In this document: piece by piece, positions 1,335-55,794 of the stretch
Position numbering within the stretch: position 1 is the stretch's first letter
How the letters are laid out: each line of letters begins with the position of its first letter
Assembly (NCBI GenBank): GCA_016215205.1
Contig: JACRKU010000013.1
Coordinates: 29,016 to 93,015, forward strand
DNA length: 64,000 nucleotides
Reading direction: 5' to 3'
DNA from: Candidatus Yonathbacteria bacterium
Lineage (GTDB): Bacteria > Patescibacteriota > Minisyncoccia > Phycocordibacterales > UBA1550
Notes under the pieces: generated by a model
What the model was told of the DNA's origin: nothing
What the model saw: the letters and a program-made list of their open reading frames with translations, nothing else
Databases searched by the model: none
Made by a program: the position numbers and the translations under genes

Positions 1335-2033
1335 ATGGAAAAGTTTAGAGCATTTGAAGAAAAGATTGGCGTGCATTTTAAAGACCGCGCGGTTCTCCGT
1401 GAGGCTTTTACGCATCGCTCATACATAAACGAAACACGCGAGCGCGGGCTTGACCACAACGAGCGTTTGGAGTTTCTGGGCGACGCGGTGGTGGAGCTTG
1501 TCGTAACAAATTTTCTATACAAAAAATATCCTCAAGCAAATGAAGGCGACCTCACAAGCTACCGCGCGGCGCTCGTAAATGCGGTGACGCTCGGCAATCT
1601 TGCTATTGATATGGGGATGGAGGAATATCTGCTCCTTTCAAAGGGCGAAGCGAAGGACAAGGGAACGAAAGCAAGGCAGATTATTCTTGCTAATGCATTT
1701 GAGGCGCTCGTCGGTGCTATTTATCTTGACCTCGGCTACGAAGCAGCGGATAAATTTCTGAAAGACTATCTCCTTGGAAAAACAGAAGAAATCGTGAAGA
1801 AGGAACTCTGGCGCGACGCAAAAAGCTTTTTTCAAGAAGAAGCGCAGGAGCATGTTGGAATCACTCCATCGTACCGCGTTATTAGTGAAGTTGGTCCCGA
1901 CCACGATAAGGATTTCAATGTGGGAGTGTATCTCAATGATGAACTCATTGGTATCGGAACAGGTAAGTCAAAGCAAGACGCCGAACAAGGCGCCGCCGCG
2001 GATGGGTTGAAAAAGAAAGGGTGGAATAAATAA
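1335..2033 (+). CDS. rnc: Ribonuclease III
   Basis: FTHRSYINE...ERLEFLGDAVVELVVTNFLY RNase III signature plus C-terminal dsRBD-like region. Confidence 0.9.
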   Translation: MEKFRAFEEKIGVHFKDRAVLREAFTHRSYINETRERGLDHNERLEFLGDAVVELVVTNFLYKKYPQANEGDLTSYRAALVNAVTLGNLAIDMGMEEYLLLSKGEAKDKGTKARQIILANAFEALVGAIYLDLGYEAADKFLKDYLLGKTEEIVKKELWRDAKSFFQEEAQEHVGITPSYRVISEVGPDHDKDFNVGVYLNDELIGIGTGKSKQDAEQGAAADGLKKKGWNK

Positions 2034-2508: not shown

Positions 2509-4758
2509 ATGCGCGTAAAAAGTTTGGAAATTTCTGGGTTTAAGTCCTTTGCAAAGAAGAGTGTTTTTGAGTTTGGGGCATCGATTTCGGCTATTGTGGG
2601 ACCGAATGGCTCTGGAAAGTCCAACGTCGCTGAAGCGCTTCGTTTCGTGCTCGGCGAGCAGTCGCTCAAGAGTATGCGTGGCAAGCGCACAGAAGACCTC
2701 ATCTTTAACGGCTCGAAAAGCGCCGAACGGCAAAATCGCGCGAAGGTGACGATTACCTTCGACAACAAAGACCGCACATTTCCCGTGGACTTTGACGAGG
2801 TTTCCATTGCGCGCGAAATCCACCGCGACGCCTCCAGTGAATATTTTTTGAATGGGTCTTCGGTACGCTTGAAAGATATTATTGAACTCCTTGCTTCGGT
2901 GCACATCGGCGCATCGGGACACCACATCATTTCGCAGGGCGAAGCGGATAGAATTTTGAATTCGTCGCCAAAGGACCGCCGCGCGATGATAGAAGACGCC
3001 CTCGGACTCAAGATTTACCACTGGAAAATAAACGAGAGTGAAAAGAAACTTTTGAAGACTGAGGAAAATATGCGTCAGTCGGAGTCTCTCCGCCGCGAGA
3101 TTGCGCCGCATATTAAATTTTTGAAAAAGCAGGTGGAGAAAGTCGAGCAGGCTAGAACATTGCGTGATGAACTCGCGCTTCTCTATGGCGATTATTTAAT
3201 TCGTGAGGAAACATACATCAAACACGCTCGTGAGAAGCTTCATGGAGAAAAAGGAAATCTTGAACGCGAACTTCATGAGGCAAATGAGGCGCTTCTCCGC
3301 GCGGATAGTTTGCGCGGCGTGCAGACGAAAGAAAGCGCCGAGGTTTCGGAGCTTGTGCGCGTGCGCTCGGAAATGGGCGCGGTGCGCCGCGAGCGAGATG
3401 ACCTTGGGAGGAAAATCGGTCGTCTCGAGGGAATGATAGAGTATGAAGAGCGCCGTTTGAATGCGCCGGAAGTTGCGCACGAGAAAACCGTTTCTGCAGA
3501 AGAGGCGGAAAATCTCGCGCAAAATCTGTATGACGAGCTCGGTCATGCAGAGGGAAGCGAGGACTATTTGTATATTAAAGGCGTAGTGAGCGCAACGCGT
3601 AACAAGCTCGGTAAATTCCTCGAACACATCAGGGGAAGTGGTGTCCAAAGAGGTCCCCGCGAGGCGGCAATAAAAGTGCTTGAGGATTTGCGCATTGAAC
3701 ATAAAAACCTTTTGGGCGCACAAGAGAACCTTGAGGATTTGATTTCAGGCTTTGAAGAAAAAATGCGCGAGCTTGAAGCAATACTTGAGACAAAGCGCAG
3801 AGATACCACCGATGCAGAACGCGCATCTTTTGAGTTTCGCGCAAAAAAACAAGAACTTACACTACGCATTGGCATAGTACGCGAACACATTGAAAATTTC
3901 ATGCGCGACGAAGTTGCATTTCGTGAAGAACTCCGCGAGGGGGGAATCCTCGTTGGTCGTTCCATTCTCGATTATGTGAATAATCATATTGATATCGAAC
4001 AAGCCCTTTCAGAGTCACGCGCCGAGCAAGAGAGTCGTCGCAAAAAAATTGAGCGCACTAAAATTCGTTTGGAGGATATTATGGGCGGAGGGTCAGGGGA
4101 GGATATTATGCGCGAGTATGAAGAAGCGGTGGAGCGTGATGTGTTTCTCTCGAAAGAACTCGAGGATTTGAAAACAAGCGCGGAGTCTCTCCGTGAATTG
4201 ATGCGCGGACTCGACGAGGAGCTTGGCGCGCAGTTCAAGGACGGTATTAAGAAAATCAATAAGCAGTTTGGAGAATTTTTTGCATTGATGTTTGGCGGTG
4301 GTACTGCATCGCTTGAAGTTGCGTTAGATAAAAAGAGGAAGCGTGGCGATACAGATATCGAAGGACTATTCGAAGGAGAGCCTGACGACGAAGAAGAAAC
4401 AGAAGAGGGAATTGATGTTGCGATTTCTTTGCCGCACAAAAAAATCCGCGGACTGCAAATGCTTTCTGGTGGCGAGCGCGCGCTCACATCTATCGCACTC
4501 ATCTTTGCGGTTTCGCAGGTGAATCCGCCGCCATTTCTTGTACTCGATGAAACTGATGCGGCTCTCGATGAAGCAAACTCTAAAAAGTATGGCGACATGG
4601 TCGCAACGCTCGCAAAATATTCCCAGCTCATCGTCATAACGCACAACCGCGAAACAATGTCCCGAGCAGGAATTATTTACGGCGTGACGATGGGCTCTGA
4701 CGCTATCTCAAAACTCCTCTCTATTAAGTTTGAGGAAGCGGAGCAGTTGGCGAAGTGA
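2509..4758 (+). CDS. smc: SMC-family chromosome condensation ATPase, short hinge-less form (749 aa)
   Basis: N-terminal head with FKSF, Walker A GPNGSGKSN, Q-loop region; long coiled-coil middle; C-terminal head with signature LSGGERALTSIALIFAV, Walker B FLVLDETDAALD, D-loop; no recognisable hinge (no G-rich hinge motif), length ~430 aa shorter than canonical SMC. Confidence 0.8.
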   Translation: MRVKSLEISGFKSFAKKSVFEFGASISAIVGPNGSGKSNVAEALRFVLGEQSLKSMRGKRTEDLIFNGSKSAERQNRAKVTITFDNKDRTFPVDFDEVSIAREIHRDASSEYFLNGSSVRLKDIIELLASVHIGASGHHIISQGEADRILNSSPKDRRAMIEDALGLKIYHWKINESEKKLLKTEENMRQSESLRREIAPHIKFLKKQVEKVEQARTLRDELALLYGDYLIREETYIKHAREKLHGEKGNLERELHEANEALLRADSLRGVQTKESAEVSELVRVRSEMGAVRRERDDLGRKIGRLEGMIEYEERRLNAPEVAHEKTVSAEEAENLAQNLYDELGHAEGSEDYLYIKGVVSATRNKLGKFLEHIRGSGVQRGPREAAIKVLEDLRIEHKNLLGAQENLEDLISGFEEKMRELEAILETKRRDTTDAERASFEFRAKKQELTLRIGIVREHIENFMRDEVAFREELREGGILVGRSILDYVNNHIDIEQALSESRAEQESRRKKIERTKIRLEDIMGGGSGEDIMREYEEAVERDVFLSKELEDLKTSAESLRELMRGLDEELGAQFKDGIKKINKQFGEFFALMFGGGTASLEVALDKKRKRGDTDIEGLFEGEPDDEEETEEGIDVAISLPHKKIRGLQMLSGGERALTSIALIFAVSQVNPPPFLVLDETDAALDEANSKKYGDMVATLAKYSQLIVITHNRETMSRAGIIYGVTMGSDAISKLLSIKFEEAEQLAK

Positions 4759-18592: not shown

Positions 18593-20035
18593 ATGAACTT
18601 TCTAAAAACAAAACGAGAAGAAACAAGAGAAGATATTTTTGGTATTAAAGTTGCAGACCCGTACCGCTGGCTTGAAGATGTAAAAAATCCAGAGGTTAAA
18701 GAGTGGATTGATGCACAAAATACTCACACCGATAATACTCTTCGAAATGAAACATTTGAGACTTTTTCTCGTGAGCTTGTGAAAAATTTTAAAGTCACTA
18801 CTTTTTCAAATCCTGTCCCAATTAAAGGGAGATACTTTTACTATGAGCGACAGCCAGATGAAGACCAAGATGCTTTTTATATGAAAATTGGTATAGACGG
18901 CGAACCCATAAAGCTTGTTGACCCGAACGGCATGAATTATGGTAATACAGTTTCTCTGGATTTTTGTTTTCCGTCTCGGACGGGAAAATATCTCGCATAC
19001 GGTCTTTCTCAAAGGGGGGGGGATGAAATGCCAACTATACATATTAAGGACACTGGCACAAACAAAGACCTTGGTTACAAAATCCCTCGTTGTAAAACTG
19101 CTAATGTAAGATGGCTCCCGGATGACTCAGGTTTTTTCTATAAACGAAACCACGCTGTTGGTGATGTTCCGCAAAACGAAGAGCATCTGCATACGAAAGT
19201 ATATTTTCATAAACTTGGCGATGATCCAATGCCGGATGACTATGCAGTCAAACAAGAATGGTATACATCAAAAGATAGCACACGCGTTCCAATGTTCATT
19301 TTTCATCGCAAGGATATCGCCCATGACGTGGCGCATCCTACCATTCTTTATGGGTATGGTGGTTTTGGAAGAGTTGAAAGCCCCAATTTTAAAAGAGGTT
19401 TTGTGCCATGGATAGAGCGTGGAGGTATTTTTGCAGTAGTGAATATCCGTGGTGGCGGTGAGTTTGGCGAGGTCTGGCACAATAGAGCTACTAAAGAAAA
19501 AAAGCAAAACAGTTTTGACGATTTTATTTCTGCAGGAGAATATTTAGTAGAACAAGGATATACTAGCGCGGAGCATCTAGGAATTTTTGGGGGAAGTAAT
19601 GGCGGACTCCTTGTGTCCGCAGTAGCAGTCCAAAGGCCAGATTTATTTAAGGCGGTGTGCTCCCGCGTACCACTCACTGATATGGCGCGTTTTCCGAAGT
19701 TCGGTATGGCTTTACGCTGGGTTCACGAATACGGTAATCCCGAAAATGAAGTGGATTTGAAAAATATATTAAAATGGAGTCCTTATCACAATGTAAAAGA
19801 GGGAACAGAATACCCAGCCTTTTTGTTTACCACTGCGGAGAAAGATGCGCGTGTCGACCCGCTTCATGCGCGCAAAATGGCCGCGATACTTCAGTCGGTG
19901 AACAAGAAAAACGAGATTTTTCTTTTTACGGAAAAAGAAGCGGGACATGGAAAAGGTAAACCTATTAAAAAAATTGTGGAAAGCCAAGCTCTAACGTTGG
20001 CATTCTTTGTTAAGAAATTAGGACTACGCATCTAG
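18593..20035 (+). CDS. S9-family serine peptidase (prolyl oligopeptidase-like) with strongly reduced beta-propeller
   Basis: N-terminal DPYRWLED POP hallmark; catalytic GGSNGGLL nucleophile elbow and downstream Asp/His region; only 480 aa vs ~700 typical, so propeller region ~130 aa; gene is AT-rich (~38-40% GC) relative to flanks. Confidence 0.75.
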   Translation: MNFLKTKREETREDIFGIKVADPYRWLEDVKNPEVKEWIDAQNTHTDNTLRNETFETFSRELVKNFKVTTFSNPVPIKGRYFYYERQPDEDQDAFYMKIGIDGEPIKLVDPNGMNYGNTVSLDFCFPSRTGKYLAYGLSQRGGDEMPTIHIKDTGTNKDLGYKIPRCKTANVRWLPDDSGFFYKRNHAVGDVPQNEEHLHTKVYFHKLGDDPMPDDYAVKQEWYTSKDSTRVPMFIFHRKDIAHDVAHPTILYGYGGFGRVESPNFKRGFVPWIERGGIFAVVNIRGGGEFGEVWHNRATKEKKQNSFDDFISAGEYLVEQGYTSAEHLGIFGGSNGGLLVSAVAVQRPDLFKAVCSRVPLTDMARFPKFGMALRWVHEYGNPENEVDLKNILKWSPYHNVKEGTEYPAFLFTTAEKDARVDPLHARKMAAILQSVNKKNEIFLFTEKEAGHGKGKPIKKIVESQALTLAFFVKKLGLRI

Positions 20036-20100
20036 ATATTCAAATGTCCTTGGCCTATTGGATTAGCAGGACAAGGGGTTTTTGAGTTATAATCATCTCA

Positions 20101-20625
20101 ATGAACCTTACGAATAACTATAAAGGCCACGCCGGTGTCGAGTATATTTTTGAATATTCTGATGCTGATTCTTTTGATGATTTGAATTTTAATAAGTGCA
20201 CTCAAGTATACGGAGTTTGTTTTTATGGCGATAAAATTGTAATAGGCTTTGGCGGCGCAAAGAAAAGCTGGGGACTAATCGGCGGGACAATTGAAAGAGG
20301 GGAAACGTTTGCGCAAACACTTGTGAGAGAAATACAGGAAGAATCAAATATGAAAGTGATGTCATTCTTGCCAATAGGATATCAGAAAGTTATAGATACA
20401 CGCGATGATAGTTTTTACTATCAGCTTCGCTATGTTTGCCTCGTACAACCCTACGGACCTTTTGTATCTGACCCAGCTCTCTCAGTAACAGAGATAAAAT
20501 TCATAGACCCCAAAGAATACAAGCAGTATTTTGACTGGGGGAGCATAGGTGACAGAATAATAGAAAGAGCATTAGAATTAAAGCATAAACTCAATTACGT
20601 GGGACTTGACAAAAAGCTGAAATAG
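20101..20625 (+). CDS. NUDIX hydrolase
   Basis: Nudix box GGTIERGETFAQTLVREIQEESN; AT-rich like the upstream peptidase gene. Confidence 0.75.
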   Translation: MNLTNNYKGHAGVEYIFEYSDADSFDDLNFNKCTQVYGVCFYGDKIVIGFGGAKKSWGLIGGTIERGETFAQTLVREIQEESNMKVMSFLPIGYQKVIDTRDDSFYYQLRYVCLVQPYGPFVSDPALSVTEIKFIDPKEYKQYFDWGSIGDRIIERALELKHKLNYVGLDKKLK

Positions 20626-20673
20626 TGTACACTTGATATAGTAATTTCACTCACCCAAAAGGAGCTCTTTGTT

Positions 20674-21087
20674 ATGAATATGGCGATTGTGAAGCAGTAT
20701 CTGAAGAATGCTTTTCGGGTTGTAGCCGTACTGACGATTGCCGCCCTCAGTATGATTATCGGCGACAAGTTTCAGCCGGTCACCTATTTAGGACTGACTG
20801 CGGATTATCTGCATCAGACGGAGGTGAAAAAGACGGTCGTTCACAAAACGTCGCCCGTAAAGGTTGCCGATAAGGTTACCAAAAAGGGAGAGACTCAGAC
20901 GTCGCAGAAAGACGTGCTCTGGGAACATGTCGGGAAGCTCAAGGGCGAATATGTGGTGAAAGACGGAGACACGCTGTGGAACATTGCGCGAAAGCACGAT
21001 GTTTCGCCGAAGAAACTCCTTCTCGCAAACAACATGACACGCGACACCAAATTGCGCCCCGGCCAGCTGATCACAATTCCAAACTGA
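20674..21087 (+). CDS. LysM domain membrane-anchored protein
   Basis: N-terminal TM (VVAVLTIAALSMIIG), C-terminal LysM (YVVKDGDTLWNIARKHDVSPKKLLLANNMTRDTKLRPGQLITIP). Confidence 0.7.
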   Translation: MNMAIVKQYLKNAFRVVAVLTIAALSMIIGDKFQPVTYLGLTADYLHQTEVKKTVVHKTSPVKVADKVTKKGETQTSQKDVLWEHVGKLKGEYVVKDGDTLWNIARKHDVSPKKLLLANNMTRDTKLRPGQLITIPN

Positions 21088-21107
21088 TACAAGCATATGT
21101 ATTTCTT

Positions 21108-21149
21108 ATACACGGAACCGTAAGTATGGTTCCGTGTATTTTCTTTTTG
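21108..21149 (+). terminator. Rho-independent terminator
   Basis: atacacggaacc / ggttccgtgtat perfect stem then TTTCTTTTTG. Confidence 0.8.
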
Positions 21150-21267
21150 TTAAACTCTGGCAATAGACGTTTGCGTTAATGTAGATTATATGTTACGATG
21201 CAGTCAGTTTTTAAGTGTTCTTTTCAATTGGCACATCGTGCCCGTAAACTAAGGGGAGAAAGCAGTA

Positions 21268-21432
21268 ATGAATGACAATATTGACAAACACATGGAAGTA
21301 GAGGTGGGAGCGTTTTGCCCCGTTGATTTTACTCCACTTATCGGAAAGCGAGACCACTGTGGGAAACCATGCACAAACATTGGTACCTCCTCCGACCAGG
21401 ACAAGAAAAATAAAGAAGACACAATAGATTAA
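21268..21432 (+). CDS. Small hypothetical protein (54 aa, 3 Cys), below ORF-track cutoff
   Basis: AAGGGGAG RBS 8 nt upstream of ATG; translates MNDNIDKHMEVEVGAFCPVDFTPLIGKRDHCGKPCTNIGTSSDQDKKNKEDTID; own terminator at 21458. Confidence 0.35.
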   Translation: MNDNIDKHMEVEVGAFCPVDFTPLIGKRDHCGKPCTNIGTSSDQDKKNKEDTID

Positions 21433-21457
21433 TATCCTGTGTTTTCATTCATTTCAG

Positions 21458-21492
21458 CCTCGCGCATTACGATGCGCGGGGTTTTTTTTCTT
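21458..21492 (+). terminator. Rho-independent terminator
   Basis: cctcgcgcat-tacg-atgcgcgggg hairpin followed by TTTTTTTTC. Confidence 0.7.
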
Positions 21493-21559
21493 TTCTCCTT
21501 ACTATGCGTGGCGCCCTTGCGCACTTTTACAATTTGTGGAAATAGATTAAAATAAGTTT

Positions 21560-21985
21560 ATGGTAGTCAATTTGATTTTTATATCGGCAATTTTATTTTT
21601 CAGCATCTTATTTGTTCTCGGTGTTCACAAAGACATCCGAGACCGCAAGCGAGTTGAGATGCTCATAAAGAATACGAAAGTGTCGAACGAGCGTTTGCGA
21701 ACAATGGAAGGACAGAAAATGGAGTTTGCATCTATTGCAGTGCATCAGTTACGCGCGCCACTCGCGGTTATAAAAGGGTATGCCTCAATGATTCTTGAGG
21801 GGACATTTGGCGCTATTTCCGACCCTGCGCGCGACGCGGTGGAGAAGCTTTATAAATCGAGCGAAAAAGTTGTTGCATCGGTCGAGGACCTGCTTGCTCT
21901 ATCGAGTAGCGATAGAGCGGACTTCGACCAAGGCGCGTGGATGACGGATGAGCCTCAGAATACAGCAAATCGCGAAGGTTCATAA
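21560..21985 (+). CDS. Membrane-anchored histidine-kinase DHp (HisKA) domain protein lacking a catalytic ATP-binding domain
   Basis: N-terminal TM; H-box AVHQLRAPLAVIKGY aligns to SHELRTPLtsIkGY with the phospho-acceptor His present; protein ends after second DHp helix (141 aa), no N/G1/G2 boxes. Confidence 0.65.
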   Translation: MVVNLIFISAILFFSILFVLGVHKDIRDRKRVEMLIKNTKVSNERLRTMEGQKMEFASIAVHQLRAPLAVIKGYASMILEGTFGAISDPARDAVEKLYKSSEKVVASVEDLLALSSSDRADFDQGAWMTDEPQNTANREGS

Positions 21986-22036
21986 GAAGAACCTATCTAA
22001 GTGAAATTTGAGCAAAAAGAATGATATACTTATTTC

Positions 22037-23272
22037 ATGATTGGCAGCATATTTGATATTATCAACAACATCTCGCTTGCAGGATTGGGGGTTGTAATAA
22101 GCAGTTTTTTTGCAGCTCTACTTTGTGGGGTTATTTTTTGGCAAGATGTAACAAAACAGAGGAGCTTGCTCCTCTTTCTTTTTGGAATCGTTAACGCCTT
22201 GGCGGCGCTTGCTTACGCATTTTTGGGAGATTCACTGGGCACTTCTGTCGCCTATGCGGGAATGATAATGCTCTATATCGCTTCTAGTGTTGCGCCGGTG
22301 TTTCTTTTTGTAAAATATAATTTGGGGGATATTAAAATCATAGCGATTGAATTATTTATTTCAATAACAGTGCTTGTGCTCGCCGTGGAACTTTTTTTTG
22401 CGGACTCGCTTCTTGATCTGTTTATCAAAACGGGGATTACGGTTCTTGTTGTTTTTGCAAGTTCATTTTTGGTGCGGAGTGTAAAGCGCGAGATACAGTC
22501 CCAAGATCAAATTGCGTGTTTCTCGCATAACCTAGACATTACGCGCGAGCGATTGCGAATTCTCGACAAGAAAAAATCAGAGTTTATTTCCATTGTAGCG
22601 CGTGATTTACTCGGACCACTGACCGCAATAAATGGCTACGCCTCCACGCTCGCAAGAGGGTCCTTTGGCGAGCTTTCAAGACCGATACAAGAGGCAGTTG
22701 AAAAAATCTTTATCTCAAGCGGACACCTTGTTGCCGTGGTTTCTGATTTTGTGGATATTTTACGCATTGAAAGTGGAGACATGAAATACAATTTTACCGA
22801 TGTAGATATGAAGAAACTCGTACTCAGTGTAGCAAACGAGACGAAGAGGGTTGCAGACAGCGCACATTTGACATTTAACACAACAATTGATGACAGCGCG
22901 CCTCTCAGACAATTTATAACAGTGGGCGATGAAAACAAATTGCGACAAGTTATTTTGAACCTTATTGATAATTCCATAAAATATACGCCTCACGGAGAAG
23001 TTTCACTGCTCCTCCGCGAAAGTCCCGATAAGAAAAAAATTCTTTTTAGTCTGTCGGACACGGGGATAGGGATGAGTCCGTCAACGCTCGGAAAAATCTT
23101 TAGAAAATTTAGCCGTGCCGAACAGGTAAACACGGTATATACTGAAAGTATCAGTCTAGGTCTCTACGTCGCAAAAGAGATCGTGGATAAGCACGCGGGC
23201 AGGATTTGGGCGGAATCAAAGGGGGAGGGAATGGGGTCAACGTTTTTTGTAGAGCTTGCGGCAAAGCCATAA
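22037..23272 (+). CDS. Polytopic sensor histidine kinase-like protein with His-to-Arg substitution at the phospho-acceptor position
   Basis: ~5 TM helices; DHp SIVARDLLGPLTAINGY aligns to canonical H-box with R in place of H; intact HATPase_c (N-box LIDNSIKYT, G1 SDTGIGM, G2 GLGLY); DHp helices paralogous to upstream 141-aa gene (GTFGAIS.P..DAVEKLY vs GSFGELSRPIQEAVEKIF). Confidence 0.75.
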   Translation: MIGSIFDIINNISLAGLGVVISSFFAALLCGVIFWQDVTKQRSLLLFLFGIVNALAALAYAFLGDSLGTSVAYAGMIMLYIASSVAPVFLFVKYNLGDIKIIAIELFISITVLVLAVELFFADSLLDLFIKTGITVLVVFASSFLVRSVKREIQSQDQIACFSHNLDITRERLRILDKKKSEFISIVARDLLGPLTAINGYASTLARGSFGELSRPIQEAVEKIFISSGHLVAVVSDFVDILRIESGDMKYNFTDVDMKKLVLSVANETKRVADSAHLTFNTTIDDSAPLRQFITVGDENKLRQVILNLIDNSIKYTPHGEVSLLLRESPDKKKILFSLSDTGIGMSPSTLGKIFRKFSRAEQVNTVYTESISLGLYVAKEIVDKHAGRIWAESKGEGMGSTFFVELAAKP

Positions 23273-23393
23273 AAACCTTGTCAAATGGTGCTTTTTGGTG
23301 TATTGTGCGTCAGTGCTATCGTATTTTGGGAGATCGTCGTATGGTGGGAATGAAAAATGAAGCAGTTCATTTTTCATCCGGTTTCGTGAGAAA

Positions 23394-23509
23394 ATTGCCG
23401 TTGTTTTTGTTTTAAGCTGGGAGATCGTCTAATGGTAGGACAGCGGCCTTTGAAGCCGTGAATCTAAGTTCGATTCTTAGTCTCCCAGCTTAAAACAAAA
23501 ACCGGCAAT
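23394..23509. repeat. ~28-30 bp inverted repeat flanking and overlapping the tRNA-Gln gene
   Basis: attgccgttgtttttgttttaagctgggag (upstream) vs reverse complement of ctcccagcttaaaacaaaaaccggcaat (downstream): near-perfect pairing extending the acceptor stem by >20 bp. Confidence 0.55.
23418..23488 (+). tRNA. tRNA-Gln (anticodon UUG)
   Basis: Manual fold: acceptor TGGGAGA/TCTCCCA, 3-bp D-stem (Gln-like), anticodon stem GCGGC/GCCGT loop CTTTGAA (U33, UUG, A37), T-arm CTAAG-TTCGATT-CTTAG, discriminator G; D-arm closely resembles E. coli tRNA-Gln. Confidence 0.8.
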
Positions 23510-23515
23510 AGGCGA

Positions 23516-23559
23516 GCCTTTGAAGCCGTCAATCTTGGTTCGATTCCAAGCCTCCCAGC
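23516..23559 (+). repeat. Degenerate direct repeat of the 3' half of tRNA-Gln (anticodon-loop to acceptor 3' end), no 5' half
   Basis: gcctttgaagccgtcaatcttggttcgattccaagcctcccagc vs tRNA ggcctttgaagccgtgaatctaagttcgattcttagtctcccagc; T-stem changes are compensatory (CTTGG/CCAAG) but no complementary 5' acceptor strand exists upstream. Confidence 0.5.
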
Positions 23560-23600
23560 AATGAATATAAACCACCGATAGAAAGTGATAGGATTCTTTT

Positions 23601-23906
23601 ATGAAGAAGAGTAATTACAGAGTTGGCGCCAAGGTGTGGATTTATCCGAGCGAAACTGCGCAGTGGCACTTTGTGAATGTTCCCAAAAAGGAATCAATAG
23701 AAATTACTAAGAATTTTGGTGGAGTTTTGCGCGGGTGGGGTTCGCTTCCCGTATCTGTAACAATTGGAAAGACAACATGGATTACATCAATTTTTTCGGA
23801 CAAAAGATCAGGTTGTTATCTTTTACCAATTAAGTCTAAGGTGAGGGAAAAAGAAGGAATTCTAGTAGACGACAATATTGTCTTTACTTTTAAAATTTTC
23901 CCATAA
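23601..23906 (+). CDS. DUF1905-like small protein (hypothetical)
   Basis: ...VWIYPSETAQWHFVNVPKK...GWGSLPVSVTIGKTTWITSIFSDKRSGCYLLPIKSKVREKEGI... resembles the DUF1905 pattern (KxxxYxxxGGWxFVxxP...VxVTIGKTTWxTSLFP...YLLPVKKxVR) as remembered, not searched. Confidence 0.5.
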   Translation: MKKSNYRVGAKVWIYPSETAQWHFVNVPKKESIEITKNFGGVLRGWGSLPVSVTIGKTTWITSIFSDKRSGCYLLPIKSKVREKEGILVDDNIVFTFKIFP

Positions 23907-24097
23907 AGATACACTGATATATAGCCCCAAAATGTTCCAATCCCCCCCCTTATACCCCCGCCAAGCTCAAAAGCTTGACATTAAAACCAAGGTAGTGTAG
24001 GATACCCCAATCGACCAATTCTCTGGTCGATTTCATTTTTTGCCATCTGGCAAGACAGTGAATGTTCTTTCAACTCAACTACACGGAGAATTACACG

Positions 24098-24391
24098 ATG
24101 AACAATCGCAAGACTGGTACGCAGAAGAAAGCCATGCTCCCCATCACGATCAACGGCTCCAAGGCCGCGATCGACGCCTCCACCATCCCTGCGAACAAGT
24201 GGTACCACTGCCACGGCCAGACCAAGGCCGGCGTCCAGGTGAACAGCCTGCAAGCCTCCTTCGTTGGTGATTCGGTCATCGTCAAGCGCCACGACGGCTT
24301 CGAAACTTCGTTCGATGCCAACGAGTTCGAGATCCTGGCGGCGAAGTACAACGAAGCCCGCGATGCGGCGAACAAGGCGCTGTTGGCCTAA
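24098..24391 (+). CDS. Hypothetical protein encoded by a compositionally foreign high-GC (~60%) gene
   Basis: GGAG RBS; GC3-rich codon usage (atc, acg, ggc, gcc, aag) unlike neighbours; upstream TTGACA promoter-like box and two palindromes (atcgaccaattctctggtcgat; ttgccatctggcaa); no recognised domain. Confidence 0.5.
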   Translation: MNNRKTGTQKKAMLPITINGSKAAIDASTIPANKWYHCHGQTKAGVQVNSLQASFVGDSVIVKRHDGFETSFDANEFEILAAKYNEARDAANKALLA

Positions 24392-38947: not shown

Positions 38948-39019
38948 GGCCCTATCGTCTATCGGTTAGGACATATCCTTCTCAAGGATAGAAGCGCGGT
39001 TCGATTCCGCGTAGGGTCA
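38948..39019 (+). tRNA. tRNA-Glu (anticodon CUC)
   Basis: Manual fold: acceptor GGCCCTA/TAGGGTC (one G.U), D-arm TCGTCTATCGGTTAGGACA (Glu-like), anticodon stem TATCC/GGATA loop TTCTCAA (U33, CUC, A37), T-arm CGCGG-TTCGATT-CCGCG, discriminator A. Confidence 0.85.
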
Positions 39020-50487: not shown

Positions 50488-50518
50488 TCTATCATGTTTG
50501 CTATACTCAGTCATACAT

Positions 50519-51784
50519 ATGTTGGACATCAAATTCATTCGTGAAAATGCAGACCTTGTGAAAGCGGCAGCGGTTAAAAAGAACATTGCCTTTGATGTGG
50601 CGGAGCTTTTGGCTGCGGATGATTCTCGCCGCACTCTTCTACTTGAAGTAGAAACAATGCGCAGTAAACAAAACGAAATTGCAAATGCCGTACCGCGCGC
50701 CACAGACACCAAAGAACGCGAACGCCTGATTTCTGAATCAAAATCAATGAAAGATGTCCTTCAAAAAAAAGAAGTCGAGCTTCAGGAAGTGATGAAAACA
50801 TGGCACGGGCTTATGGTGCAGGTGCCTAATATTCCCGATGTGTCGGTGCCGGAAGGCAAAGAAGATTCTGACAATGTGGAAGTGCGCACATGGGGCTCAA
50901 TTCCGAAATTTGATTTTACTCCCAAAGACCACATTGAACTTTTTGAAAAACACGGTATGGCGGACTTTGAGCGCGGCACAAAAGTTGCCGGTTTTCGCGG
51001 ATATGTTTTGAAGAGCGATGGCGCGCGGCTTGTTTTTGCTCTTTCGCAATTTGTACTCAACGAACTTTCAAAAGAAGGATTTGAGCCGATGATTGTGCCA
51101 TCACTCGTGCGTCGTGCGCCACTTATTGGTACCGGTTTTTTGCCGCAAGGAGAAGAAGATTTATATAAAACACAGGATGGCGACTTTCTTGCGGGCACTG
51201 CCGAGGTGGCAACGATGGGCTACCACATGGATGAAGTTTTGAACATCTCTGATTTTCCGAAAAAATATATTTCATTCTCGCCGAGTTTTAGGCGCGAAGC
51301 GGGAAGCCACAGCAAAGACACAAAAGGACTTATCCGTGTCCACGAGTTTTTCAAATGGGAGCAAGTCATTTTGTGCGAGGCAAGCCATGAGCAAAGCGTA
51401 AAATTCCACGAATACCTCACCGAAAACTCCGAAAAGCTGATGCAGAAACTCGGCATTCCGTATCACATAGTATTGAACTGCGGCGGCGACCTTGGTCTCG
51501 GTCAAGTAAAGAAATACGACATTGAAGCATGGGTTCCTTCGCAAAACACCTACCGCGAGACGCACTCCGCTTCATACTTTCATGATTTTCAAACACGCCG
51601 CCTGAACATTCGCTACAAGGATGCCAACGGCAAGCTTCGTTTTGCGCACTCGCTCAATAACACAGCCATTGCGATGCCGCGCATTCTTGTGCCGCTTGTT
51701 GAAAATTTCCAGCAGGCGGATGGTAGCATTACTATCCCCGAAGTTCTGCGTCCATATATGGGCGGGAAACATAAGATTGGGTAG
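50519..51784 (+). CDS. serS: Seryl-tRNA synthetase
   Basis: MLDIKFIRENADLV N-terminal coiled coil; class II motifs (FRREAGSHSKDTKGLIRVHEF, GYHMDEV...). Confidence 0.9.
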   Translation: MLDIKFIRENADLVKAAAVKKNIAFDVAELLAADDSRRTLLLEVETMRSKQNEIANAVPRATDTKERERLISESKSMKDVLQKKEVELQEVMKTWHGLMVQVPNIPDVSVPEGKEDSDNVEVRTWGSIPKFDFTPKDHIELFEKHGMADFERGTKVAGFRGYVLKSDGARLVFALSQFVLNELSKEGFEPMIVPSLVRRAPLIGTGFLPQGEEDLYKTQDGDFLAGTAEVATMGYHMDEVLNISDFPKKYISFSPSFRREAGSHSKDTKGLIRVHEFFKWEQVILCEASHEQSVKFHEYLTENSEKLMQKLGIPYHIVLNCGGDLGLGQVKKYDIEAWVPSQNTYRETHSASYFHDFQTRRLNIRYKDANGKLRFAHSLNNTAIAMPRILVPLVENFQQADGSITIPEVLRPYMGGKHKIG

Positions 51785-51786
51785 TA

Positions 51787-51840
51787 TACCATCCTCAAAA
51801 AATCTATGTACAGTTATTCAAAAATTTTTTGAGGATGGTA
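51787..51840 (+). terminator. Rho-independent terminator overlapping a TATAAT -10 box
   Basis: taccatcctcaaaaaat...attttttgaggatggta 17-bp stem; 3' arm runs into TATAAT (51839-51844) 7 nt before ATG 51851. Confidence 0.7.
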
Positions 51841-51850
51841 TAATTTAAAT

Positions 51851-52711
51851 ATGACACGCTTTGGCAATCTCTTTGCGCGCCTTCACGATCAATTTGGTGT
51901 ATGGTTTAGTCGAATGTTTATTATAGCCCTTCTTTCTTTTTTGTTTTTTGTCGCACTGGGCGGCGTATCACACAATAGTAAGTGGCAAATTTTCCAAATT
52001 AAGGTAACAGGGGCAACCACTATTTCTTCGGACACAGTACGCTCGCTCGCACTTGAAAAGATTCTTGGAAATTATTTTCTTGTGTATGCGCGGAATAACA
52101 GCTTTTTGTTTCCTATTGGAGAAATAGAACAATCGCTTCTTGATTTGTATCCACAGATTGCGAGTGTTTCAGTAAATCGCATTGATGATCATTCTATAGT
52201 AATAAATATTTCTGAACGCAAGCCGTACGCGCTATGGTGCGGGGAAGAATTTAGTTTGATACCGCGCGAACTTATTGATTGTTGGTTTATCGATAACAAT
52301 GGTTTTATATTTGACCAAGCGCCGGTGTTTTCTAGCGGGGTTTATCTTGAGGTATATTCCAAATTAATTGAAAAAAACGAGGGTGAGCCATTGCGCGCCG
52401 GAGTTCCTTATGAGCGATTTTATGCCGCGGATTCTTTTGTAAAACTTTTGCGCGAGGAAGTCGGCGAGCCGCTTCGCGTCAGTTTGAAACCCGAAGGAGA
52501 AGCCGAGGTTACTTTGCGCACGAGCGCGATATACCCGTTTCTTGCTGGAGTCATCGTACGATTCAAAGACGAAGAGATTCCGCAAACGCTCGTAAAAACT
52601 TTGCGCGCGGCAATTTCCAGAGAGTTTCCCGATAACACAGCGTTAAAAAAGAAGCTTCTTTACATTGATATGCGCTTTGGAAATAAAATTTTCTTTGGGT
52701 TTGAAAACTGA
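51851..52711 (+). CDS. ftsQ: Cell division protein FtsQ/DivIB-like (POTRA domain)
   Basis: Short cytoplasmic N-terminus, TM (MFIIALLSFLFFVALGG), POTRA-like segment (...SLLDLYPQIASVSVNRIDDHSIVINISERKPYALW). Confidence 0.6.
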   Translation: MTRFGNLFARLHDQFGVWFSRMFIIALLSFLFFVALGGVSHNSKWQIFQIKVTGATTISSDTVRSLALEKILGNYFLVYARNNSFLFPIGEIEQSLLDLYPQIASVSVNRIDDHSIVINISERKPYALWCGEEFSLIPRELIDCWFIDNNGFIFDQAPVFSSGVYLEVYSKLIEKNEGEPLRAGVPYERFYAADSFVKLLREEVGEPLRVSLKPEGEAEVTLRTSAIYPFLAGVIVRFKDEEIPQTLVKTLRAAISREFPDNTALKKKLLYIDMRFGNKIFFGFEN

Positions 52712-52734
52712 CAAACTGTGCTAGAGTATCCGCA

Positions 52735-53733
52735 ATGAATAATGACACCCAAAAACCAATTATGGGGTTCTGGGCAAACTTGCCAAAACCATTTTTTGTG
52801 TCTGCGCCAATGGCGGATGTAACAGATGCGGCGTTTCGTCAGATGATTGCAAAGTACAGCAGACACGGTGAGAAGGGCGGTGGGCCTGATGTATTTTGGA
52901 CGGAATTTGTTTCTGCAGATGGTCTCTGTAGCGCAGGGCGCGAAGCTTTGAAACGCGATCTCGCGTTTAGCGACCGCGAGCATCCAATCATTGCGCAGAT
53001 TTTTGGTTCTACGCCGGAGCACATGAAAAAGACCGCACAGCTCATCAAGGAACTTGGATTTGATGGCATTGATATCAATATGGGTTGCCCCGATAAAAGT
53101 ATCGAGAAGCAAGGAGCCGGTGCGGCGCATATAAAGAACCCGAAACTTGCGCAAGAAATTATTCGCGCGACAATAGAGGGCGCAGGAGGACTTCCCGTGT
53201 CGGTCAAAACTCGCATCGGGTACAACAAAGAAAATCTTGAAGAGTGGCTTGGCGCGATACTTGAAACAAAACCAGCGGCCATCACTGTGCATGCGCGTAC
53301 GCGCAAAGAGCTTTCGCTTGTGCCTGCGCGTTGGGAGGAAGTTCGGCGCGCCGTGAAGCTCGCCCGAGGCACAGGCACACTTATTATTGGCAATGGAGAT
53401 GTGAAGGACATTGACGATGCAAACGAGAAAGCGTTGACAACGGGCGCAGACGGCGTGATGCTTGGTCGCGCGATGTTTGGCACACCGTGGCTTTTTGACC
53501 GGCTCCGCAAATGGCCGCCGACTCTTGAAGAAAAATTTGAAATACTCATCGAACACACCCATCTTTTTGAAAAACTTTTGGGCGATATTAAAAACTTCGC
53601 GATTATGAAAAAGCATTACAAGGCGTATGTGAACGGTTTTGATGGCGCGAAAGAGCTTCGCGTGAGAATAATGGACGCGAAAAATGCCGACGAGGTAGAG
53701 CGCATTGTCCGCGATTTTCTCAAGTCACTTTAG
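52735..53733 (+). CDS. dus: tRNA-dihydrouridine synthase
   Basis: FVSAPMADVTDAAFR..., DINMGCP, TIM-barrel Dus pattern with C-terminal helical domain. Confidence 0.85.
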   Translation: MNNDTQKPIMGFWANLPKPFFVSAPMADVTDAAFRQMIAKYSRHGEKGGGPDVFWTEFVSADGLCSAGREALKRDLAFSDREHPIIAQIFGSTPEHMKKTAQLIKELGFDGIDINMGCPDKSIEKQGAGAAHIKNPKLAQEIIRATIEGAGGLPVSVKTRIGYNKENLEEWLGAILETKPAAITVHARTRKELSLVPARWEEVRRAVKLARGTGTLIIGNGDVKDIDDANEKALTTGADGVMLGRAMFGTPWLFDRLRKWPPTLEEKFEILIEHTHLFEKLLGDIKNFAIMKKHYKAYVNGFDGAKELRVRIMDAKNADEVERIVRDFLKSL

Positions 53734-53753
53734 TTTGTTATACTATTGTTACA

Positions 53754-54788
53754 ATGTCTTCGAGCCTCGCACTTTATACCAAATATCGCCCGAAAACCTT
53801 TGAGGAGGTCATCGGACAAGAGCAAACCATAAAAACGCTTTTAGGTGCTATAAAAGCCGGCTCTGTCGGGCATGCGTATCTTTTTTCTGGCTCTCGCGGT
53901 ACCGGCAAGACTTCCATCGCGCGTATTTTTGCGCGCGCAATCGGCGCGCACAATGACGACATTTACGAGATTGACGCGGCTTCAAATCGCGGCATTGATG
54001 ACATCCGCGCGCTTCGCGATGCCGTGCACACAGTGCCAATGCACTCGCCATATAAAGTATATATTATTGACGAAGCCCACATGCTTTCACATGATGCATT
54101 TCCGGCGCTCTTGAAAACCCTTGAGGAGCCGCCGCGGCATGTCGTGTTCATTCTCGCTACGACCAACGAGAGAAAAATTCCGGAAACAATCGTCTCGCGC
54201 TGTCAGAGTTTCCGTTTTGAGAAACCTTCACAGGCGACGCTCAAAGTGATGGTGGAGCGCGTGGTTAAACAAGAGGGTTACATACTTGAGCCGGCATCGG
54301 CAGACCTCATCGCGCTACTTGGCGACGGTTCATTTCGAGACACTTACGGCATTCTTCAAAAAGTCATAGCGGCATCTTCCGACAAAAAGATTTCTCAAGA
54401 AGAAGTGGAAGCGGCGACAGGCGCGCCAGATAGTCGCCTTGTGAATTCGTTTCTTCGTGCAGTGGTGGCGCGCGACGTAGAAGCTGGAGTTACTTCTCTC
54501 TTCGGCGCTGTGGAACACGGAGTGGAAGAAAAAGTTTTTCTTGATTTGCTCCTTCGAAAGATGCGCGCAGTGATGATGTTCCGTTTTGTGGCAGGGTCTG
54601 CAAAGCGTCTCGCCGAGGATTTCCCGACAGAAGATATGTCGCTCATTGAAGATCTTGCCAAGAACGCAACACATACTTTAACGTCCAAAGAGCTCGCCGA
54701 GTTCCTTCGTGCATATGAATCAGTGCGCGTGGCAGCCGTGCCCGGCCTCGCTCTCGAGCTGGCACTTCTCCGTATTTCAGGAAAGTAA
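53754..54788 (+). CDS. dnaX: DNA polymerase III gamma/tau-like clamp-loader ATPase, compact (344 aa)
   Basis: YRPKTFEEVIGQE, Walker A GSRGTGKTS, DEAHML, sensor TTNERKIPETIVSRCQSFRF; only the N-terminal AAA+ and lid domains. Confidence 0.75.
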   Translation: MSSSLALYTKYRPKTFEEVIGQEQTIKTLLGAIKAGSVGHAYLFSGSRGTGKTSIARIFARAIGAHNDDIYEIDAASNRGIDDIRALRDAVHTVPMHSPYKVYIIDEAHMLSHDAFPALLKTLEEPPRHVVFILATTNERKIPETIVSRCQSFRFEKPSQATLKVMVERVVKQEGYILEPASADLIALLGDGSFRDTYGILQKVIAASSDKKISQEEVEAATGAPDSRLVNSFLRAVVARDVEAGVTSLFGAVEHGVEEKVFLDLLLRKMRAVMMFRFVAGSAKRLAEDFPTEDMSLIEDLAKNATHTLTSKELAEFLRAYESVRVAAVPGLALELALLRISGK

Positions 54789-54825
54789 CCTTTTGAAAAG
54801 CGCATTTTTCTGATATGATAACGAA

Positions 54826-55794
54826 ATGCGGAAAACACTACTTTCAGGAGTACAGCCGTCGGGTACGGCACATATTGGCAACTATTTTGGCGCGATGCGC
54901 CAGTTTGTTGACCGCCAAGGCGATTATCGCCAATTTATTTTTATTGCGAATTATCATGCGCTCACGAGCGTGTCAGATGGTGCGCTTCTCCAGAAGCTTA
55001 CGCTTGAGCTCGCGATGGATTATCTCGCTATCGGCGTGGACCCTAAAAAGACAACAATTTTTCTTCAGTCCGATGTTCCTGAGGTGACAGAACTTGCGTG
55101 GATTTTTAACACGATTACGACGGTGCCATATCTTGCTCGCGCAACTTCATTTAAAGATGCCGAGGCAAAAAATAAAGAGGTGAATGTCGGACTTTTTGAT
55201 TATCCGATTTTAATGGCTGCTGATATTTTGATGTACAATGCTGATGTGGTGCCAGTGGGGCTTGACCAAAAACAGCATATTGAAATCGCAAGAGATACGG
55301 CGCAAAAGTTTAATCGCATTTTTGGCGAGACATTCAAAATTCCCGAACCGATGATTTTGGAGAAGGTGAAAACAGTCCCCGGTACTGATGGACGCAAGAT
55401 GAGCAAGAGTTACGGAAACGTAATTGGACTTTTTGCGAGCGACGAGGAAATCAAAAAAGCGGTGATGAGTATTCCCACAGACTCAAAGGTGGTTGAGGAG
55501 CCAAAAAATCCGAGCGAGTGCAAGGTGTTCGCGCTCCACGAGCTTTTTCCCGGTGCAGACCTTGAGGCTCTGCGCACGCGCTACCTCGCGGGTGGTGTCG
55601 GCTACAAGGAATCAAAAGATTTACTTGTAGAAAAAATCATTGCATTCGTATCACCAATGCGTGCACGTCGTGAGGAAATCGCGCGTAATCCTGATGCTGT
55701 TTTGAAAATCTTGCGCGATGGTGGGGAAGTGGCTCTAGCGCAGGCACAGAAGACAATGCAGGAGGTACGCAAGAAGGCGGGGTTAATTTTATAG
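54826..55794 (+). CDS. trpS: Tryptophanyl-tRNA synthetase
   Basis: LSGVQPSGTAHIGNYFGA (HIGH region), KMSKSYGN (KMSKS). Confidence 0.9.
   Translation: MRKTLLSGVQPSGTAHIGNYFGAMRQFVDRQGDYRQFIFIANYHALTSVSDGALLQKLTLELAMDYLAIGVDPKKTTIFLQSDVPEVTELAWIFNTITTVPYLARATSFKDAEAKNKEVNVGLFDYPILMAADILMYNADVVPVGLDQKQHIEIARDTAQKFNRIFGETFKIPEPMILEKVKTVPGTDGRKMSKSYGNVIGLFASDEEIKKAVMSIPTDSKVVEEPKNPSECKVFALHELFPGADLEALRTRYLAGGVGYKESKDLLVEKIIAFVSPMRARREEIARNPDAVLKILRDGGEVALAQAQKTMQEVRKKAGLIL

Follow-up and report, generated by a model that had tools for sequence, protein, structure and literature searches.

The DNA analysed here (the window) is a stretch of 64,000 nucleotides (nt) from a Candidatus Yonathbacteria genome, and our subject is the gene for a glutamine transfer RNA (tRNA-Gln) that it carries between a histidine kinase gene and a DUF1905 gene. 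The intact gene lies in an array made up of partial copies of itself, a palindromic hairpin and two arms that are complementary to each other across the tRNA (Table 1). The first-pass annotation of this DNA had reported the tRNA-Gln, the inverted repeat around it and, downstream, a 44-nt copy of its 3' half with compensatory changes in the T stem, and all three are real. The copy is also, as had been stated, a true fragment and not a second tRNA, but the matching 5' part upstream of the gene had been overlooked, as had the hairpin and spacer behind it, the outer trailer remnant and the location of the promoter-like site. The only other tRNA that ARAGORN and Rfam recognise in the window is a plain tRNA-Glu at 38948.

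Table 1. Features of the tRNA-Gln array, with positions in the window (bp, base pairs)
Feature	Position	Strand	Basis
Promoter-like site TTGTCA-17-TATTGT, sigma-70-like	23278..23306	+	39/41 identity in the orthologous locus L021
5' fragment, copy of tRNA-Gln nt 1-23 (acceptor 5' strand and D arm)	23327..23349	+	repeat family D2
Palindromic hairpin, 28 nt, 12-bp stem, GCAG loop, abutting the 5' fragment	23350..23377	+	inverted repeat I5, 100% complementary
Spacer pairing back onto the D-arm part of the 5' fragment, giving a longer rod	23378..23393	+	folds of homologous modules
Leader arm (7 bp, TT bulge, 15 bp), abutting tRNA nt 1	23394..23417	+	inverted-repeat search
Intact tRNA-Gln(UUG), CCA not encoded	23418..23489	+	ARAGORN; Rfam tRNA, 64.5 bits
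Trailer arm, complement of the leader arm	23490..23509	+	pairing begins at G73:C(-1), helix continuous with the acceptor stem
Junction AGGCGA between trailer and 3' fragment, not tRNA-like	23510..23515	+	read from sequence
3' fragment of a presumed outer tRNA-Gln gene, anticodon loop to C74	23516..23559	+	repeat family D1
Putative remnant of an outer trailer (T1), its partner leader mostly deleted in the window	23559..23581	+	pairs with leader L1 of L021

Organization of the array

The 5' fragment is identical to the inner tRNA at 20 of 23 positions and to the 5' fragment of L021, the orthologous locus of another Yonathbacteria genome, at 22 of 23; its derived variant GTCGTAYGGTGGGAAT is common to the window and to L004, a locus of another Patescibacteria genome. 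The hairpin that follows is single-copy within the window. The spacer behind it is 14/16 identical to that of L021 (our own count on the alignment), and its pairing with the D arm is seen in the folds of six of the seven homologous modules, the window's among them. The site listed in Table 1 is the sole promoter-like site in 23100-23700, and it lies upstream of the 5' fragment, not of the intact tRNA. It presumably drives the whole nested unit and was originally the promoter of an older, outer tRNA-Gln gene. We refer below to the segment from hairpin to junction as the cassette.

The arms of the inverted repeat (23403-23424 and 23481-23502) are complementary at 22 of 22 positions, the 7-bp acceptor stem included. 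Beyond the 2-nt TT bulge, 7 further bp join 23394-23400 with 23503-23509, giving a total of ~29 bp, of which 22 lie outside the acceptor stem. Five other leader/trailer pairs are built in this way. The leader sequence was found only at its own site and, reverse-complemented, in the trailer (0.21 chance matches expected). Of the 26 nt that separate the tRNA from the 3' fragment (23490-23515), 20 (23490-23509) are the complement of the leader. In the junction that makes up the remainder, the distance from AGG to the anticodon loop is 3 nt less than in the tRNA, and homologous junctions (AGG + 5 nt) are present in L004 and in a further Patescibacteria locus, L002. The 3' fragment runs from the last 3 nt of the anticodon stem 5' strand through C74 and matches the tRNA at 38/44 positions; two T-stem base pairs differ on both sides between them.

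When 23320-23570 (251 nt) was folded (z = -7.9), the whole unit was enclosed by pairing of the outer 5' acceptor strand with the outer 3' strand. When the outer halves were joined in silico, with the insert removed, no tRNA was detectable in the window, while the halves of L004 still gave one. In Rfam, no family but tRNA was found at E-values up to 10, besides two spurious weak matches; where a plant microRNA precursor is matched, the long inverted repeat explains it. A group I intron, an archaeal-type intron or a split tRNA was considered and rejected, as no ribozyme family was matched in Rfam and joining the outer halves gives nothing that is called a tRNA. No terminator was seen before DUF1905.

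An assembly artefact is unlikely, given that independent assemblies match: window 19186-23452 is reproduced without a difference in a Logan assembly (L001), which breaks off at the start of the duplicated 3' half, and three independent assemblies of the relative (L021-L023) carry the same array.

The orthologous locus in a sister genome

L021, L022 and L023 are assemblies of one other Yonathbacteria genome and are identical across the array. The neighbours of L021 are those of the window (NUDIX, LysM, HisKA and histidine kinase genes, then DUF1905), with histidine kinases that are 67% identical. L021 has the same promoter region and 5' fragment, followed by a homologous hairpin, spacer, leader, tRNA, trailer and start of the 3' fragment. 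Since the array is common to both genomes, the cassette of the window is probably old. Moreover, a comparison of the two copies shows, in each helix, several pairs of which both partners have changed, so complementarity appears to have been kept since insertion.

L021 is one outer layer deeper than the window, with an extra 5' fragment, hairpin and spacer, and a leader, L1. Window 23559-23581 can pair with this L1 over 7 bp, a bulge and ~14 bp, at -19.7 kcal/mol compared with -8.3 +/- 2.6 in shuffles. This complementarity between T1 of the window and L1 of L021 indicates that the window formerly had that outer layer too and that its 5' side has been mostly deleted.

The 3' fragment of the window is identical at 44/44 positions to the 3' half of the intact tRNA-Gln of L021 (4565-4608). 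The identity includes C66, which is mismatched with A7, and the window's own tRNA differs at six positions, including the two compensated T-stem pairs. The 3' fragment is therefore probably the remnant of the resident gene, and the intact gene the cargo of the insert. The fragment had initially been ascribed to the tRNA-Gln of another lineage; the two 3' halves do differ in history, but the direction is probably the reverse.

Window and L021 agree at 57/60 positions (our own count) over the 5' fragment, the spacer and as much of the 3' fragment as both possess, and the 4-fold degenerate sites of the flanking genes are 55-71% identical. We looked for a recent recombination tract between the two genomes and found no clear identity gradient in the flanking genes.

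The 3' fragment of L021 is interrupted after GCCGTCAA by an element encoding a RAYT-like Y1 transposase of 224 amino acids (aa) (L021 4650-5600). The transposase gene lies ~220 bp downstream of the nested array and is flanked by its own inverted REP-like repeats GGGGGTCAGGTACCCTTTTT. A 276-aa open reading frame (ORF) without a family match comes after it.

Nested arrays at other Patescibacteria loci

A pattern scan of reference genomes and metagenomes yielded two more independent loci, L002 and L004. They belong to other Patescibacteria, and their neighbours (HolB-RelB-YafQ upstream) are not those of the window. On its upstream side L002 holds three layers, each with leader, 5' fragment, hairpin and spacer, and two units of trailer and 3' fragment downstream. 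L004 has one nested layer and a tandem unit (B) whose leader/trailer hairpin no longer holds a tRNA. The seven upstream modules form one family (nhmmer E-values of 1e-13 to 1e-20), which in the 220 kb compared was found only at tRNA-Gln. Two module subtypes recur across genomes of differing synteny, and both are present in L021 and in L004.

The right-hand junction is also recurrent: AGG + 5 nt was seen at four of the five junctions read, compared with AGG + 8 nt in the tRNA, and those of L004 A and L021 are shorter still. This suggests that the right-hand junction is inherited with the cassette and is not remade each time, an outcome that co-conversion of the flanks during homing would give.

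Contigs L001, L004 and L008 (the last described below) end within the array, and that of L002 ends ~1.4 kb past it; the nested arrays would explain assembly breaks at tRNA-Gln in Patescibacteria. Scans of IMG/VR with the 3' half, with both cassette subtypes and with a palindrome-bearing 5' fragment gave nothing relevant among viral contigs; the single match (L029) is due to chance, being a high-GC coding region with no tRNA. Homologues of YafQ (P0017; L009-L012) lie in unrelated contexts, with no tRNA-Gln called beside the anchor gene. Similarly, homologues of the histidine kinase (P0065; L024-L028) lie in unrelated contexts; L024 is without a tRNA and the others are without an adjacent tRNA-Gln.

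The outermost 3' fragment of L002 (1330-1390, minus strand) is cut in the T loop, between GGTTCGATT and AAAATATT, and abuts a 390-aa ORF, ~160 nt away from the end of the contig, that by eye resembles an adenine DNA methyltransferase. This fragment may have been the target of a different element.

Covariation and pairing of the helices

We compared five leader/trailer pairs from four genomes, as well as the seven homologous hairpins. The leaders and trailers share the pattern of 7 bp, a 2-nt 5' bulge and 15 bp, although their sequences are widely divergent. Of their 22 pairs, 14 vary at both partners, and the share of paired cells is 95.5%, compared with 35-46% in slid controls; at most 1 in 500 shuffles attains any of the five measures used. 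The hairpins behave in the same way: 9 of 12 pairs vary at both partners, the share of paired cells is 97.6%, and there is no G-U. Each layer has its own leader/trailer pair, in nested order (in L002, L0/T0 versus L1/T1), which argues against tandem duplication followed by neutral decay.

G-U pairs account for 3 of 187 paired cells (1.6%) in both helices and for 14 of 125 (11%) in the tRNA stems of the same loci (Fisher p = 4.5e-4, a value that overstates independence because the tRNA sequences are related). Such near-exclusive Watson-Crick pairing fits a DNA palindrome and is less typical of an RNA helix, and we infer that the helices behave like DNA palindromes. Their palindromic form may be kept either by protein recognition of a hairpin or cruciform or by template switching between the arms.

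We also considered a folding clamp, in which the helix or the fragments would shield the inner tRNA from mispairing with the copies of its own halves, and equilibrium modelling gave it no support. With the leader or the trailer shuffled in silico, the acceptor-stem probability remains at 0.96-0.997, and the cloverleaf probability is unaffected unless nearly all flanks are shuffled together. An integron attC-like site was rejected because the order of the GTT/AAC boxes relative to the stem is unlike attC (judged by eye), and the hairpin is not a degenerate ORF, since reading frames are not conserved among homologous hairpins.

Empty and nuclease-occupied sites

Using YafQ as an anchor, we found relatives in which the site is differently occupied. 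In L005-L007, with the order SerRS-FtsQ-Dus-HolB-RelB-YafQ-tRNA-Gln, the tRNA-Gln is plain, with no fragments, hairpin or leader/trailer complementarity. The sequence upstream of the L006 tRNA is homologous to that preceding the outer 5' fragment of L004, and the outer fragment thus appears to mark the position of the resident gene.

In L008, at the same syntenic position, a 5' fragment ending in GGTAGGGTAG is followed by an ORF for an 82-aa GIY-YIG nuclease (Pfam E = 7e-15) and then by a complete tRNA-Gln, which begins 3 nt past the stop codon. Homologues of this GIY-YIG protein are encoded 3-7 nt upstream of tRNA-Gln in other Patescibacteria, namely L013, L014 and L016-L020 (anticodon CUG in L016-L020). 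The 5' fragment that precedes the ORF in L013 and L016 ends with GGTAGGA, with TAA after the break, which is the junction of the hairpin cassettes. Across L013 and L016-L020, the GIY-YIG cassettes share this break point. The pair of GIY-YIG gene and tRNA-Gln in L014 is without an upstream 5' fragment.

One orthologous site, after RelB-YafQ, therefore exists in three states: empty in L005-L007, with GIY-YIG in L008 and with hairpin cassettes in L002 and L004. The presence/absence polymorphism expected of a homing cassette is thus found at the HolB-RelB-YafQ site, outside Yonathbacteria. GIY-YIG is absent from the window: a profile built from 38 sequences had no match in the 850 window ORFs.

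Two further insertions were seen at these loci. An 18-nt perfect palindrome, CCTGCCTGCGCAGGCAGG (variant CCTGCCCGCGCAGGCGGG), has entered displaced 5' fragments of tRNA-Gln in five genomes, precisely at nt 11/12 and with no duplication of the target. Two other places hold it, the anticodon loop of the second tRNA copy of L014 and, in frame (6 codons), the coding sequence of Dus in L008. In all, its sites are L008 4345-4362 and 1091-1108, L013 2467-2484, L014 2849-2866 and 2892-2909, L016 2466-2483 and L021 ~4311-4364, the last being an elaborated version of 54 nt. The window lacks this palindrome, and no description of it was found in the literature searched. In L007, a GC-rich insert of ~250 nt (861-1120) comes directly after the plain tRNA-Gln, with an Mrr-type restriction gene nearby, and the last 12 nt of the tRNA are duplicated at the far end of the insert (CTGTCTCCCGGC).

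Origin of the array

The array has a nested anatomy that recurs at tRNA-Gln in four independent genomes, its helices covary, and at one orthologous site in relatives both empty and nuclease-occupied alleles exist. We propose, with a probability of roughly 0.6, that an older tRNA-Gln gene was split after nt ~24 by a homing-type insertion of a cassette of ~166 nt (23350-23515) that carried an intact gene. The cassette would consist of the palindromic hairpin, the spacer, the 24-nt leader, the complete tRNA-Gln and the 20-nt complementary trailer. The flanking pieces (23327-23349 and 23516-23559) would be the two halves of the disrupted gene, and the inverted repeat would be the cassette's own leader/trailer helix. 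Since the trailer is complementary to the leader across the tRNA, leader, tRNA and trailer probably arrived as one piece. Moreover, because the target is destroyed and a replacement supplied in one step, insertion would be cheap for the cell, and because the replacement is again a target, cassettes could nest in one another. The copy in the window would then be an old one, with no nuclease gene and with part of a still older outer layer lost.

Insertion may have occurred through repair of a site-specific break in tRNA-Gln, copied from a cassette-bearing allele in a homing-like manner. The nuclease would have acted in trans; candidates for it are the GIY-YIG proteins whose genes occupy this insertion point in relatives. 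Both helices would act mainly as DNA palindromes. The tRNA would be transcribed from the old promoter within a long precursor, and RNase P and the 3' processing steps could act only once its leader/trailer duplex had been opened, a task that RNase III could plausibly perform. RNase III, for which this stem had been suggested as a possible processing site, is indeed encoded in the window (1335-2033), and cleavage by it is possible.

A wider version of the proposal, which we hold only tentatively, is that of a self-nesting selfish tRNA gene: miniature cassettes would home into the tRNA-Gln of Patescibacteria, autonomous forms would carry the GIY-YIG nuclease, and layers would accumulate. The gene would be destroyed at nt ~24 and replaced by its own copy between palindromic arms, and arms and hairpins would be structures either recognised by the machinery or created by hairpin-mediated break repair. 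A family of self-nesting tRNA-Gln replacement cassettes is apparently undescribed; in the literature searched we found no description of the nested tRNA-within-tRNA form or of an association of GIY-YIG with tRNA in Patescibacteria.

Several observations weigh against the homing cassette. No nuclease or recombinase is linked to the window copy, and no donor or empty allele was found among the Yonathbacteria compared. The GIY-YIG cassettes have a 5' fragment and no 3' fragment, so the two cassette types are related by target but not demonstrably by descent; judging from the sequences, what would link them is the shared insertion point and the orthologous site rather than homology of the cassette interiors. 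It should be noted that the 82-aa proteins are bare catalytic domains of UPF0213/YhbQ type, with no DNA-binding domain. In addition, the 3' junction is not a clean cut-and-paste, as all 3' fragments are without the 5' strand of the anticodon stem. Pieces of equal age would not be expected to differ as they do in L002, where identity to the tRNA is 100% for the 3' fragments and only ~70-75% for the 5' fragments. Lastly, the ~95% identity of the fragments between window and L021, set against the 55-71% at 4-fold sites, is unlike that of decaying relics. For these patterns of identity, the perfect match of the window's 3' fragment to L021 among them, any one of three processes could account: selection acting on the flanks, gene conversion involving the 44-nt repeats, or an exchange of cassettes in recent times.

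The locus had at first been read as the remnant of an integrase-mediated insertion, with the 3' copy as an attachment (att) site of attL/attR type. An insertion scar at a hot spot is what we find as well, but we consider it very improbable that a tyrosine-integrase element entered the anticodon-loop region, brought a replacement 3' half and was later lost, leaving the displaced half as attR. Such an event would account for the displaced block of identity, which runs from the anticodon loop to the 3' end like anticodon-loop att sites, and would suit a hot spot at which a methylase, Mrr or RAYT-like gene lies beside tRNA-Gln in L002, L007 and L021. However, Pfam revealed no integrase, transposase or GIY-YIG protein among 30 large ORFs of the window and the genes flanking the tRNA, the gap of 26 nt holds no island, and integration at a 3' end does not produce a 5' fragment upstream. 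The trailer, moreover, complements the host-side leader, which is impossible for an element-borne trailer, and the same compact arrangement occurs at four independent loci, with no integrase island in the relatives L021, L002 and L004, a situation that the first-pass annotation had itself named as a refutation. Local tandem duplication with deletions, in which three copies decayed to a 5' piece, an intact gene and a 3' piece with no mobile element involved, is improbable too. The fragments are directly oriented on both sides, L014 has a true second tandem copy and L004 the tandem unit B, and tandem amplification of tRNA segments driven by SegB is known in phage T6 (PMC13096335). Nevertheless, tandem copies would start alike and lose complementarity, whereas the leader/trailer pairs are nested and covary. 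The copy that left the 3' fragment would have to start 70 nt after the start of a 72-nt tRNA, with no room for a whole copy, and the module of hairpin and spacer, which does not belong to any tRNA unit, has homologues in genomes whose neighbouring genes differ.

A structured precursor with a function for the host also seems unlikely, although it is in keeping with several of the findings. The stem would be a substrate of RNase III as in ribosomal RNA (rRNA) operons, and the fragments and hairpin would be maintained for shaping the processing or expression of the only tRNA-Gln(UUG), or of DUF1905. The presence of the RNase III gene, the covarying helix, the folding of the 251-nt region and the lack of a terminator ahead of DUF1905 agree with this, as does the conservation of fragments, spacer and helix bases between window and L021 well above that of 4-fold sites. 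On the other hand, the tRNA-Gln of the syntenic relatives L005-L007 is plain and has no helix, the near absence of G-U pairs is at odds with an RNA helix, and the inner tRNA folds almost as before when the leader, trailer, hairpin or fragments are shuffled. From what is established on substrate recognition by RNase P, pairing that continues through C(-1):G73 should also impede this enzyme and 3' processing by RNase Z, and the 3' fragment of L021 has an insertion sequence inside it. We likewise give little credence to the same nesting achieved by cassettes that move as folded single-stranded DNA through a hairpin-specific HUH/Y1 transposase of IS200/IS605 or RAYT type. In its favour are the palindrome-like helices, whose bases are conserved and tips variable and whose 2-nt bulge is constant, and the RAYT-like gene close downstream of the L021 array; but that transposase has unrelated REP-like repeats of its own and interrupts the 3' fragment. 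There is no Y1 transposase in the window, and the hairpin, leader and upstream module are single-copy in its 64 kb, unlike REPINs or PATEs.

Comparison with known systems

SegB of phages T4 and T6 is a free-standing GIY-YIG homing endonuclease that cuts tRNA genes and adjoins them (PMC2330249, PMC13096335). The relatives L008, L013, L014 and L016 are similar in that a GIY-YIG gene lies beside the tRNA, its ORF 3-7 nt upstream, and SegB cassettes show co-inherited flanking tRNA sequence and a possible local duplication of a tRNA segment. Unlike SegB, the window has no nuclease gene, and the 82-aa proteins of the relatives, as bare catalytic domains, are only predicted to cleave. Moreover, the target is here split and replaced, the products nest, and palindromic leader/trailer arms are not a feature of SegB.

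Islands and prophages that target tRNA genes regenerate the tRNA with element-borne sequence, and the displaced fragment marks the site (Islander, PMC4383910). In tRNA-dependent lysogeny, the host tRNA is destroyed and replaced by the element's complete tRNA of the same isotype (PMC10865867). The logic is the same in the window, where the insert would destroy the gene and bring a whole replacement. In contrast to these elements, it has no integrase, island or attP arms, measures only ~166 nt, leaves fragments on both sides, and lies at nt ~24 in the D arm instead of in the anticodon or T loop.

In rRNA precursors, leader and trailer pair into a long helix, which covaries and is cut naturally by RNase III (PMC11404451, PMC10250234). 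Complementary and covarying flanks enclose a mature RNA in the window as well, but here the helix encloses a single tRNA, occurs only with nested cassettes, is nearly free of G-U and is absent from the plain tRNA-Gln of relatives. A tRNA nested within a tRNA is seen neither in rRNA helices of this kind nor in SegB cassettes, tRNA-targeting islands or tRNA-dependent lysogeny. For Caldiarchaeum, a model among split and intron-bearing archaeal tRNAs has a mobile element disrupting a tRNA gene (PMC3293823). There too, insertion leaves behind a 5' piece of the tRNA gene, with an intact copy downstream of it, and the locus of that model varies within populations, a likeness to the tRNA-Gln locus. 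In contrast to the archaeal case, the host is a bacterium, there is no bulge-helix-bulge, the outer halves give no tRNA, and the insert carries a whole tRNA and not a recombinase.

If our proposal is true, even an essential and probably single-copy tRNA gene of a minimal genome is open to a selfish element, and the host survives, since the element brings the replacement gene along, with neither integrase nor intron ribozyme. This would be a third solution beside tRNA-regenerating integrases and self-splicing introns. Fragments of tRNA at the tRNA-Gln of Patescibacteria should then not be read as att sites, and the very abundant 82-aa GIY-YIG proteins of these bacteria would gain a candidate function. 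The locus would also offer a natural system in which to study tRNA processing from a precursor whose acceptor stem runs into a 22-bp duplex.

Neighbouring genes

DUF1905, a high-GC gene described as foreign and a cupin gene had been listed downstream of the tRNA in connection with the supposed insertion. DUF1905 and the high-GC gene that follows are, however, syntenic and conserved in L021, including the intergenic promoter region, and so do not form a recent island. For the high-GC gene (24062-24391), which has no Pfam match, the N-terminal coding sequence and the upstream promoter-like region are conserved in L021, which argues against a recent acquisition. The GC content at these two genes (0.51) is inside the range of the window.

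Elsewhere in the window (50498-55794), the order SerRS-FtsQ-Dus-HolB is followed directly by TrpRS, whereas tRNA-Gln, with its cassettes, comes directly after HolB in L002, L005-L008, L013 and L014. Given that these HolB neighbourhoods differ, the tRNA-Gln locus appears to have moved between lineages. The histidine kinase upstream of the tRNA (21560-23272) is split into ORFs of 141 and 411 aa, most homologues being ~554 aa long; the same split is present in L021 and was thus probably inherited.

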